From a virus (taxonomy: Duplodnaviria; Heunggongvirae; Uroviricota; Caudoviricetes): a stretch of 7,690 nucleotides of DNA. Of the stretch, positions 6,439-7,690 are shown piece after piece (the stretch's first letter is position 1; each line of letters starts with the position of its first letter). The position numbers and the translations under genes were made by a program. The notes under the pieces were generated by a model that saw nothing but the letters and a program-made list of their open reading frames with translations, had not been told where the DNA came from and did not search any database. Location of the stretch: the IMG/VR virus record IMGVR_UViG_2597490227_000004. The stretch is one strand, 5' to 3'.

Positions 6439-7020
6439 ATGAACAACTCATGGTGGCAGGAACTAATGCATTTTTTCCTGCAAGGAATGACACTTAAACA
6501 GTTGATTCATATGCTAATCATCCTGATCATATTGATTATTGTTATGCCGGTAAGCGTAAAAGAATGGATAAACCTGCATAATCCAGAAATCCTTCCTCAT
6601 TACTGGATGTATTACATCCTGTTGTTTTGCGTTAGCTATGTGCTTAACGGCGTTGTTAATTCCGCTTATCACGCTGTGACTGAAAGAATTGAGGTATTCG
6701 CTGCTCAGAAGCGCAAATCTAAAGAAGAAAAATATGTGCAAGATTTGTTTGATTCGTTAACTCTTGGAGAAAGAGCGTATTTGGCATTCGCTGTAGCCGC
6801 TAATAACCAGCTACAAACGGAAAAGGGCGCTCATGAATCAATTTCATTGCTCAAAAAAGGACTCCTCGTTCGAAGGCCTCCTGCTGTTGGATATCCTGAT
6901 ACCGACCGTTTCGTTATCCCTGAAAGCTATAGACATGAGTGCTACATTAGGTTTGCCGGGAAGGCAGACAGCCTTATGGATGAACTTATCGCTCAGGATA
7001 AGCATGGCAAAAACAAGTAA
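6439..7020 (+). CDS. sieB: Superinfection exclusion protein B (SieB), membrane protein, 193 aa
   Basis: The only convincing plus-strand gene. It has a hydrophobic N-terminal region (LIHMLIILIILIIVMPVSV, YWMYYILLFCVSYVLNGVV) and matches lambda/P22 SieB by recall. It is convergent with N. Confidence 0.8.
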   Translation: MNNSWWQELMHFFLQGMTLKQLIHMLIILIILIIVMPVSVKEWINLHNPEILPHYWMYYILLFCVSYVLNGVVNSAYHAVTERIEVFAAQKRKSKEEKYVQDLFDSLTLGERAYLAFAVAANNQLQTEKGAHESISLLKKGLLVRRPPAVGYPDTDRFVIPESYRHECYIRFAGKADSLMDELIAQDKHGKNK

Positions 7021-7036
7021 TTAGCAAATGAATTTA

Positions 7037-7309
7037 TCATCTCGCCGTCAGTTGTTTTGATTTCCGGTAGCCTGCCGCGTAAAGAGCTACGTTCGGAAGA
7101 CAAGTTGAACCTTCATATTTTCTGGTCAACGTTGTCAGAGTTATCACTTCTGCTCTCATTGCTGGTTTGAGCTTGCATTGCAAGACCACTCGTGAAGGGG
7201 TTGGCCTGTGTAGCTTGTCGGAGCTGATCGCCTCCTGACTTTGCAGATTTGCGCGACGAGCTCTACGGCGAGAAGCTGCGGTGCCTTTAAATTCTGTTTT
7301 TCTGGACAT
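7037..7309 (-). CDS. N: N-type transcription antiterminator (90 aa from ATG 7307-7309), not lambda N
   Basis: GGGAGG RBS 4 nt upstream of ATG 7309. Arginine-rich motif GTAASRRRARRANLQ near the N-terminus, as in N proteins. The C-terminus CLPNVALYAAGYRKSKQLTAR matches H-19B/933W-type N by recall. The ORF-track start at 7381 is an upstream extension. Confidence 0.8.
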   Translation of the reverse strand: MSRKTEFKGTAASRRRARRANLQSQEAISSDKLHRPTPSRVVLQCKLKPAMRAEVITLTTLTRKYEGSTCLPNVALYAAGYRKSKQLTAR

Positions 7310-7407
7310 GGATTCCTCCCGAATAAACTTTGGCGATGCAATCTCGAAGCTCCTCCTGAGACGGTTGCTTCGGCATTGCATCCCACAGCTTATGTGGTTG
7401 GGTGATC

Positions 7408-7452
7408 TGGCTTTTCAGCCACGTAGTCGAGAGTCGACGTTGTTTAAAGAGC
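7408..7452 (-). promoter_or_regulatory. nutL: Candidate nutL: boxA (GCTCTTTAAACAA) plus boxB-like hairpin with GAAA loop
   Basis: On the minus strand, GCTCTTTAAACAA (plus 7440-7452) closely matches the boxA consensus. 18 nt downstream lies UGGCU-GAAA-AGCCA (plus 7408-7421), a 5-bp stem with a GNRA-type loop. Both sit in the N leader about 100 nt upstream of the N ATG. Confidence 0.4.
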
Positions 7453-7497
7453 CTGCCAGTCTGTTCCATTTGGCTTCCAGCGTCCTGCTGACGGTTA

Positions 7498-7533
7498 AAT
7501 AGTACGATATGTACTTTACAAGATCAATACAAT
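7498..7533 (-). promoter_or_regulatory. Candidate pL promoter with overlapping operator-like inverted repeat
   Basis: Minus-strand -35 TTGTAT (plus 7528-7533), 17-nt spacer, -10 TATCGT (plus 7505-7510), each 4/6 to consensus. The inverted repeat AGTAC-GATAT-GTACT at 7502-7516 overlaps the -10. The call is weak. Confidence 0.2.
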
Positions 7534-7690
7534 TTGTTGTAAGTTGGCGTGGTTTTTTATAACGCTTTGTATTTAATAGTGTTGTTTTTTAGCGTGGATG
7601 TATTGCCTCGGCGATGTAAGGAGAGATCAGAATTGCGTGGTTTAGTGGGTTGCATCTATTTATTTTTCAATAAATATAATTGGTTATGTG

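Follow-up and report, generated by a model that had tools for sequence, protein, structure and literature searches.

A predicted VT2-Sakai-type N antiterminator and its nutL site with a candidate GNRA-tetraloop boxB in a lambdoid prophage

Elements of the locus

The DNA analysed here is a stretch of 7,690 nucleotides from the Caudoviricetes virus record IMGVR_UViG_2597490227_000004 (called the window below, always at its full length), which carries on its minus strand a gene for a putative N antiterminator and, ahead of it, a leftward N-utilization site (nutL). In the direction of transcription, the elements follow one another as a pL-like promoter at 7499-7527 (−35 TTGATC, 7527-7522; 17-nt spacer; −10 TACTAT, 7504-7499), boxA GCTCTTTAAACAA at 7440-7452, a single C, a spacer hairpin GUCGA-CUC-UCGAC at 7426-7438, a UACG linker at 7422-7425, the predicted boxB hairpin UGGCU-GAAA-AGCCA at 7408-7421 with a 5-bp stem, a closing U-A pair and a GNRA tetraloop, a long-range leader helix at 7325-7395, the Shine-Dalgarno sequence GGAGG at 7319-7315, and the N gene at 7037-7309 (90 amino acids plus stop), whose ATG (7309-7307) lies 5 nt after GGAGG. 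With a probability of about 0.92, the region is read as nutL and a VT2-Sakai-type N, that is, the leader and first gene of the pL operon of a lambdoid prophage. No observation was found to contradict this assignment beyond the caveats given below.

The module is already known, annotated and widespread in E. coli prophages. In the record of the Stx2 phage VT2-Sakai (AP000422), a 90-aa N is annotated together with a "putative N-utilization leftward" and a "putative N-utilization rightward" site; the annotated nutL spans boxA through most of boxB, and this stretch is identical in the window. A preliminary description of the window, made from its letters alone, had proposed a heterologous N with a matching nut site, and this was borne out: the protein is not the lambda N despite a lambda-like left arm, and a cognate nutL is present. 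The significance for this window is small, as the pair is a textbook lambdoid one, and the only mildly unusual feature is the true four-base GAAA loop of boxB, compared with the five-base loop of the phages that have been studied.

The N protein and its translation start

The 90-residue product was assigned to the lambdoid N antiterminators by profile matches and homologue alignments. It matched Pfam PF25694 (N_peptide) with 113.1 bits (cutoff 27.9, E = 1e-32) and PHROG 271 (anti-termination protein N-like) with E = 2e-24. The arginine-rich RNA-binding motif claimed for it from the letters is present at residues ~9-25 (7235-7285), where SRRRARRANL aligns with the corresponding motifs of P22 (TRRHERRRKL), H-19B (SRRRERLKAK) and lambda (TRRRERRAEK). 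A central motif, EAISSDKLHRPTPSR, is also found in H-19B N. A search of N against all PDB chains with phmmer gave no match at E ≤ 10, the lambda and P22 N entries being too short or too divergent.

The C-terminal module (residues 67-90, 7040-7111) is common to the N proteins of P22, VT1-Sakai and H-19B. Its sequence, CLPNVALYAAGYRKSKQLTAR, is the same as in H-19B and 79% identical to P22, and close variants end the N of VT1-Sakai, the N of Lambda_2E9 and P22 gp24. The earlier label of an H-19B/933W-like C-terminus was thus correct as to identity with H-19B, but the module is not specific to H-19B/933W. From known N proteins, this module would be expected to bind RNA polymerase. Over the whole protein, identity was 100% to the N of ev017 and ev207, 98.9% to that of VT2-Sakai (89/90, the single difference being L47 in the window and R in VT2-Sakai), 84% to that of Shigella phage POCJ13 and 41.7% to that of H-19B/933W (127 aa).

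The N frame is open over 7037-7381, and its first ATG (7381) would give 114 aa, the start annotated in AP005153, while the supported ATG (7309) gives 90 aa. Initiation at 7381 is very unlikely and was rejected. No Shine-Dalgarno site precedes this ATG, which sits within the conserved leader helix, and GGAGG stands instead ahead of ATG 7309. The Pfam alignment starts at residue 23 of the 114-aa frame, MSRK; all homologues begin MSRK or MTRR, and the start Met at 7309 aligns with the annotated starts of the H-19B, epsilon34, POCJ13 and VT2-Sakai N proteins. At the position of the upstream ATG, POCJ13 has GTG, and the H-19B and epsilon34 leaders are unrelated in sequence at that place. The start was fixed in this way at 7309, where public annotations disagree.

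The annotation of this gene is inconsistent in public records, with 40 aa in the ev017 RefSeq entry (survey locus L003:4532-4654), 90 aa in VT2-Sakai and 114 aa in AP005153 (L002:3310-3654). Its product is given as a "Putative regulatory protein" in ev207, and the E. coli genomes annotated by PGAP have it as a "hypothetical protein".

Compared with the 127-aa N of H-19B, about 7 + 29 residues are missing from the 90-aa protein, as would be expected of a truncated, defective leftover in a decaying prophage. This explanation is extremely unlikely and was discarded. The 90-aa form is kept at ≥98% identity in 80 viral contigs and occurs in the phage genome records of VT2-Sakai, ev017, ev207 and PhiR63_2, the leader from nutL to the N start is found in 763 complete E. 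coli genomes, and no damage is seen in the arginine-rich motif, the central HRPT motif or the C-terminal module. Since the N proteins of other types are equally short in VT1-Sakai (90 aa) and mEpX2 (87 aa), 90 aa is taken as the normal length for this N type. The length of "only 90 aa" given previously holds when counted from ATG 7309 after GGAGG, but it is not short for an N of this kind.

Assignment of boxB

As described previously, nutL boxA is near consensus, GCTCTTTAAACAA, and can be compared with CGCTCTTTAAC in P22 nutL, GGCTCTTTAACA in VT1-Sakai and CGCTCTTA in lambda; it conforms to CGCUCUU(U)A upstream of boxB and lies within the annotated VT2-Sakai nutL. The 5-bp stem with a GAAA tetraloop was also confirmed (TGGCT-GAAA-AGCCA in DNA letters; UGGCUGAAAAGCCA), with a predicted energy of −7.1 kcal/mol. 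The palindrome GTCGA-CTC-TCGAC between them, which had led the preliminary description to call the boxB assignment uncertain, exists, although one nucleotide away from where it had been placed (7426-7438, not 7427-7439). It is a perfect 5-bp hairpin right after boxA and forms in every fold prediction, so that it could be considered the true boxB with the GAAA hairpin being incidental. Comparison with related sites refutes this alternative, whose probability is practically negligible.

The nutR of ev017 and VT2-Sakai, just after cro and outside the window, reads CGCTCTTTGTAACAA-C-GGAC-ATTC-GTCC-TACG-TCGCT-GAAA-AGCGA. Relative to nutL, the GAAA hairpin is kept with a compensatory G:C to C:G change in the stem, while the palindrome is replaced by an unrelated, still-paired hairpin (GGAC-ATTC-GTCC) and TACG is retained. 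A nutR with the same boxB type was found in 78/78 loci of this N type that extend that far. Among the nutL sites of ~80 close relatives, the stem of the palindrome is kept and its loop varies (CTC, ACAC, ACTC, ATC, GCAC), showing no GNRA-like character and changing freely under the same N; the GAAA hairpin is constant, with the sole exception of GCAA, also a GNRA loop, in POCJ13.

Comparison across N types gives the same result. H-19B has GATTC-GAATAT-GAATC-TACG-GCGCT-GACAA-AGCGC in nutL and GGAC-ATTC-GTCC-TACG-TCGCT-GACAA-AGCGA in nutR. The nutR spacer hairpin, with variants GGAC-AUUC-GUCC or GGGC/GCCC, is found in both N classes without change, and it is in the loop of the second hairpin that the classes differ. 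H-19B and epsilon34 have a common nutL spacer hairpin (GAUUC...GAAUC), yet their N motifs and boxB loops differ. The sequence of the spacer hairpin, then, does not track N type. Because the nutR spacer hairpin is identical across N types while the second loop differs, the second hairpin is identified as boxB.

In H-19B nutR, which also has two hairpins, N protects boxB and NusA protects the spacer (PMC3526286). A spacer dyad is found here in both nutL (GUCGA/UCGAC) and nutR (GGAC/GUCC), which is the structured spacer of the H-19B type. By this comparison, boxB is assigned with confidence to the GAAA hairpin at 7408-7421, and the palindrome is a spacer hairpin as in the H-19B nut sites. The uncertainty expressed earlier is thereby removed: the GAAA hairpin is found again in nutR, with compensatory changes, and goes hand in hand with the arginine-rich motif of N, it is conserved in every phage with the same N type, in nutL and nutR alike, and the layout of boxA, spacer and boxB matches that of known nut sites. 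In the work of Neely and Friedman from 2000, the H-19B spacer hairpin is said to act as a "reducer" drawing the flanking nucleotides together, and H-19B N reportedly works without NusB, S10 or boxA; for the window, the near-consensus boxA would instead predict a need for NusB and S10. Deletion of the H-19B spacer hairpin is reported to do little harm, but a mutated arm to abolish the activity of the site.

Promoter, leader and chance expectation

The transcript from pL was inferred to start at ~7492. The promoter scores 8/12 to consensus and was not listed by a simple promoter scan; the homologous VT2-Sakai site carries the annotation of a putative major leftward promoter with operators. At 7526-7542/7557-7573 there is a pair of 17-nt arms, complementary in part, that overlaps the pL region; these arms are probably half-sites of the oL operator. 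Upstream of pL, an AT-only hairpin TTATT-GAAA-AATAA is present at 7660-7673, and a terminator of the pRM transcript is annotated nearby in VT2-Sakai.

The N leader has ~100 nt between boxB and N and contains a 16-nt inverted repeat with 88% complementarity (core arms 7335-7350/7367-7382), which encloses the upstream ATG 7381. The fold gave a z-score of −3.8, and the consensus helix across five N leaders has 18 pairs, 3 of them with compensatory changes. The helix is kept in the POCJ13, epsilon34, H-19B and Oslo leaders despite differing interior sequence. It resembles the RNase III/translation-control stem of the lambda N leader, and may have a similar role here.

Single nut elements were weak by chance test. 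For boxA alone with ≤2 mismatches, 1 match was found in the window against 0.72 expected, which is not significant, while perfect 5-bp stems with a GNRA loop numbered 3 against 0.44 expected. A boxA core followed by a GNRA hairpin within 45 nt has a single occurrence in the window, and 2000 shuffles likewise produced one. The real support for the nut elements is comparative. The UACG linker does not vary among the 39 distinct nutL and nutR sequences of the two N classes, all of which had been located by a TACG search. A search of 6900-7690 against Rfam (evalue mode) gave no nut-like family and only a chance rliG match (E = 4.6). A plus-strand terminator called by pattern scan at 7426-7438 was rejected, being most likely a palindrome artefact: it is the mirror of the spacer hairpin with the complement of boxA as its T-rich tail, its stem is only 5 bp, and it lies 400 nt past the end of sieB.

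Co-variation of the arginine-rich motif and the boxB loop

The association between N and boxB was surveyed in 233 loci, obtained from related-locus searches with the N of the window, of H-19B and of epsilon34 and from annotated phages, and the arginine-rich motif was tabulated against the hairpin after TACG in nutL and nutR. The first class, to which the window belongs, has [AE][RH]RAxLQ after the RRR core and GAAA (GCAA once) at both sites, in 105 loci with 0 exceptions; its N is 90 aa in E. coli and Shigella and 120 aa in the epsilon34-type Salmonella phages. The second class (H-19B/933W/Oslo) has ERLKAKALANGVLARE after the RRR core, an N of 127 aa and GACAA at both sites (GUCAA in Oslo/sal5-type nutL), in 83 loci with 0 exceptions. 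No mismatched combination of N and loop was found in the 188 loci with both nut sites. Since the 120-aa epsilon34-type N has a tetraloop boxB, the loop type follows the arginine-rich motif and not protein length.

The boxB stems occur in five fully complementary forms (UGGCU, CGGCU, AGGCU, UCGCU and GCGCU). The first pair is UA, GC, AU or CG and the second CG or GC, all of them paired. In the Oslo-type phages, which have an N of the H-19B class, the nutL boxB deviates from the usual form, GCUCC-GUCAA-CGAGC being closed by a C-C mismatch, and the nutR boxB is UCGCU-GACAA-GGCGA with a U-G closing pair (survey locus L180: 3350-3375 plus, 880-900 minus; also L182). The closing-pair rule for boxB is thus relaxed in this lineage.

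nutL is next to N, but the immunity region separates nutR from them by 1.3-3.5 kb. The segments from nutR to nutL fell into 28 clusters, five of which hold both N classes. In pairs from these mixed clusters, the 1.5-kb cI-pL block was 100% identical, and the N/nutL and cro/nutR blocks both differed. The second-class loci L109, L161, L162 and L168 are 90-97% identical over ~1 kb of cI-cro to ev017, of the first class, yet their nutR has GACAA and not GAAA. From the spacer hairpin onward and on the cII side, nutR is 93-95% identical between the classes, with the loop indel as the consistent difference. The occurrence of the same immunity type with either N class, with the nutR loop matching N, speaks for selection that preserves the match between N and its two nut sites. 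N type and the two nut sites were thus shown to stay together as a matched set in the presence of different immunity regions.

The difference between the loops might be functionally neutral, with interchangeable N types and an association that reflects shared ancestry and few recombinations. Both loops can adopt the GNRA fold, the C of the P22 GACAA loop being looped out (PMC12550061), the loci are closely related within classes, and nutR is located at a mosaic boundary and could move with neighbouring DNA. Against neutrality stand the complete lack of mismatched combinations, the immunity types that occur with both N classes while the nutR loop follows N, and the near identity, from the spacer hairpin onward, of the two kinds of nutR in all but the loop; the association is also found in an independent lineage, the 120-aa epsilon34 type of Salmonella. 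On balance, neutrality is considered rather unlikely, although it is a possibility to be taken seriously.

The proposal of two N classes with distinct specificity is likely but not proven, because independent events are few. The N/nut system of the window is predicted to work like that of H-19B with a different specificity: where the H-19B class has a GACAA loop and a motif continuing RRRERLKAKALANGVLARE, the window has GAAA and RRRARRANLQSQ. The features of the lambda specificity class (boxB GCCCUGAARAAGGGC, motif MDAQTRRRERRAEKQAQW) were also absent from the window. At roughly even odds, the N of the window and the epsilon34-type N would form a distinct natural class, defined by a true GNRA tetraloop boxB (GAAA/GCAA) with no looped-out base, one nucleotide from the GACAA pentaloop of the H-19B/P22 type, and by a shorter RRR-x-RRA-x-LQ motif. 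If so, a single loop nucleotide would switch specificity in nature between Stx and lambda-like prophages that circulate together, and N, NusA and the polymerase would assemble without need for an extruded loop base. The preliminary description had proposed that this N/nutL pair sets the specificity of the phage; N type and nut loops do co-vary, but the specificity is not newly defined, being of the VT2-Sakai type (AP000422).

Several caveats apply to the assignment of N and nutL. The RNAfold minimum-energy structure of nutL (−14.1 kcal/mol, compared with −12.0 for the two-hairpin fold) has boxA paired to the 3' half of boxB, meaning that the canonical two-hairpin fold is not the predicted thermodynamic optimum of the naked RNA. 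The sequences used to count boxB pairs had been picked for perfect pairing, which makes the figure of 100% partly circular, and many surveyed loci are near-identical, so independent events are far fewer than loci. In addition, the searchable literature holds no experimental test of this N type and no study of a tetraloop boxB class or of Sakai-type nut sites, the sites being only putative in GenBank.

Some of these points can be qualified. As a check free of the circularity, the hairpin was present at every surveyed locus with sequence available. In the alternative fold, GGCUCUUU of boxA pairs with the loop and 3' arm of boxB, GAAAAGCC, and is ~2 kcal/mol better; it is predicted in nutL and nutR of this N class (nutR of loci L001 and L003) but not in the H-19B nut sites, and the base before boxA varies (G, T, A) without compensation. 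From these predictions, the boxA:boxB pairing is probably incidental.

The pL operon, mosaicism and distribution

The gene order is pL, nutL, N, convergent sieB, ral, ea10, cIII/kil, gam, bet, exo, xis and int. N is the first gene of the pL operon, after nutL and by the immunity region, in the window and in the VT2-Sakai and ev017 loci. The sieB gene (6439-7020, plus strand; Pfam SieB, E = 2.5e-22) converges on N with 16 nt between the stops, as in lambda and P22. Terminator-like sites were found by pattern scan on the minus strand at 5869-5890 (8-bp stem and T run, downstream of N), 5432-5449 (7-bp stem and T run, upstream of kil/cIII) and 2615-2633 (8-bp stem and T run, further down the operon); they are putative as to function and would be targets of the N-modified polymerase. 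Masked runs of N bases occupy 482-555 (74) and 1299-1489 (191) in the int and xis region, where the translations of open reading frames show X.

Over the 670 bases at 7021-7690, six phage records including ev017 show 100% identity, and identity is 94% for VT2-Sakai, Stx1-converting phage, Nil2 and many Stx phages. Taken over its full length, the window shows 100% identity with phage PhiR63_2 and 99.9% with ev207. The leader from nutL to the N start was found in 763/5426 complete E. coli genomes (~14%), among them Nissle 1917 and the type strain. A profile scan of genome contigs with the N alignment yielded no more than 11 loci, the majority of them with N of other types or on contaminant contigs. 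Enterobacterial lambdoid N genes also appeared on short contigs of unrelated taxa, a "Segatella copri" metagenome-assembled genome (L169, L172) and a 394-nt contig of "Xanthomonas pisi" (L170), and these are almost certainly binning or contamination artefacts.

The sister phages Lambda_2E9 and Lambda_4B5 are 97% identical to the window up to ~7100, after which identity drops to random level. Their N proteins have a P22-type arginine-rich motif and near-identical C-terminal 22-24 residues. Since homology stops at ~7100 while the C-terminus is near-identical, the exchange joint is placed in the conserved 3' end of N (~7100-7111, codons ~67-70). The N motif, nutL, pL and the immunity region are swapped as a cassette, in line with standard lambdoid mosaicism.

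Proposed mode of action

RNA binding by N, contacts with Nus factors and read-through of terminators are expected from the paradigms of lambda, P22 and H-19B. Leftward transcription from pL would give an RNA with boxA, the spacer hairpin with UACG, and the boxB hairpin, in which boxA would serve as the NusB/S10 site. After translation of the 90-aa N from ATG 7309, its arginine-rich helix (SRRRARRANLQ) would bind the GNRA tetraloop of boxB, while the central region would contact NusA and the C-terminal CLPNVALYAAGYRKSKQLTAR RNA polymerase. The polymerase would then become termination-resistant and read through the terminators before ral, ea10, cIII, kil, gam, bet, exo, xis and int. The second matching site, nutR, would act in the same way just after cro, beyond the window. 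The difference of one loop nucleotide, GAAA as opposed to GACAA, may insulate the early antitermination circuits of co-resident Stx and lambda-like prophages from each other.

Comparison with known N/nut systems

The modules of ev017, ev207, PhiR57_1 and PhiR63_2 are identical to those of the window. VT2-Sakai (Sp5; AP000422, BAA94119) has an identical nutL from boxA to boxB, an N with 89/90 identity and the same length, the same pL-nutL-N order and the same nutR architecture. It differs in the open reading frame after N, where the window has the convergent sieB and a lambda-like left arm.

The N and NUT sites of H-19B/933W are the subject of Neely and Friedman 2000 (PMID 11123680) and of the Sen laboratory papers PMC3526286 and PMC4499122. 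H-19B/933W have, like the window, boxA, a dyad spacer, UACG and a 5-bp boxB stem with a closing U-A pair, and the H-19B nutR is near-identical to that of the window class from the spacer hairpin on. The N proteins have in common the start MxRxTxFKG, the RRR core, the EAISS..LHRPT.SR motif and an identical C-terminus. On the other hand, the boxB loops of H-19B are GACAA pentaloops and that of the window is a GAAA tetraloop. After the RRR core, H-19B N continues ERLKAKALANGVLARE and the window N ARRANLQSQ, the H-19B stretch being 7 residues longer, and H-19B N has an extra 29-residue central insertion (127 vs 90 aa). The H-19B nutL boxA is degenerate (GGTGAATATACAA), whereas that of the window is near consensus.

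The N-like gp43 of epsilon34 belongs to the same motif subclass (GRRRERRAALQN vs SRRRARRANLQS in the window), and its boxB has a GAAA tetraloop in nutL (CGGCT-GAAA-AGCCG) and nutR, as in the window. It differs in length (120 aa, with a long H-19B-like central region), in an H-19B-like nutL spacer hairpin and degenerate boxA, and in coming from a phage with a P22-like virion and a Salmonella host. A novel boxB specificity was predicted in the epsilon34 genome paper from the divergent N-terminus (PMC2629481), and the GenBank record of this phage marks a 14-nt nutR boxB.

P22 gp24 has an arginine-rich motif and a related C-terminal module (LPGVALYAAGHRKSKQITAR), and the P22 site resembles that of the window in boxA (CGCTCTTTAAC), in the 5-bp boxB stem with a closing U-A pair and in the GNRA-type fold. 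Unlike the window, P22 has no spacer hairpin, its arginine-rich motif is TRRHERRRKLAIERD, and its boxB loop is a GACAA pentaloop, the looped-out C of which contacts the peptide (PMC12550061).

Lambda is similar in operon position, in the logic of boxA, spacer and boxB, in the 5-bp stem closed by U-A and in the convergent sieB beside N. It differs in its GAAGA/GAAAA pentaloops, in an unstructured spacer of 8-9 nt, and in an arginine-rich motif and C-terminus unrelated in sequence to those of the window N. In lambda, boxB has a GNRNA loop from which the fourth base is extruded (PMC12027372). A plain GNRA tetraloop with nothing to extrude, as predicted for the window, is the one departure of this class from the N/boxB pairs that have been studied.

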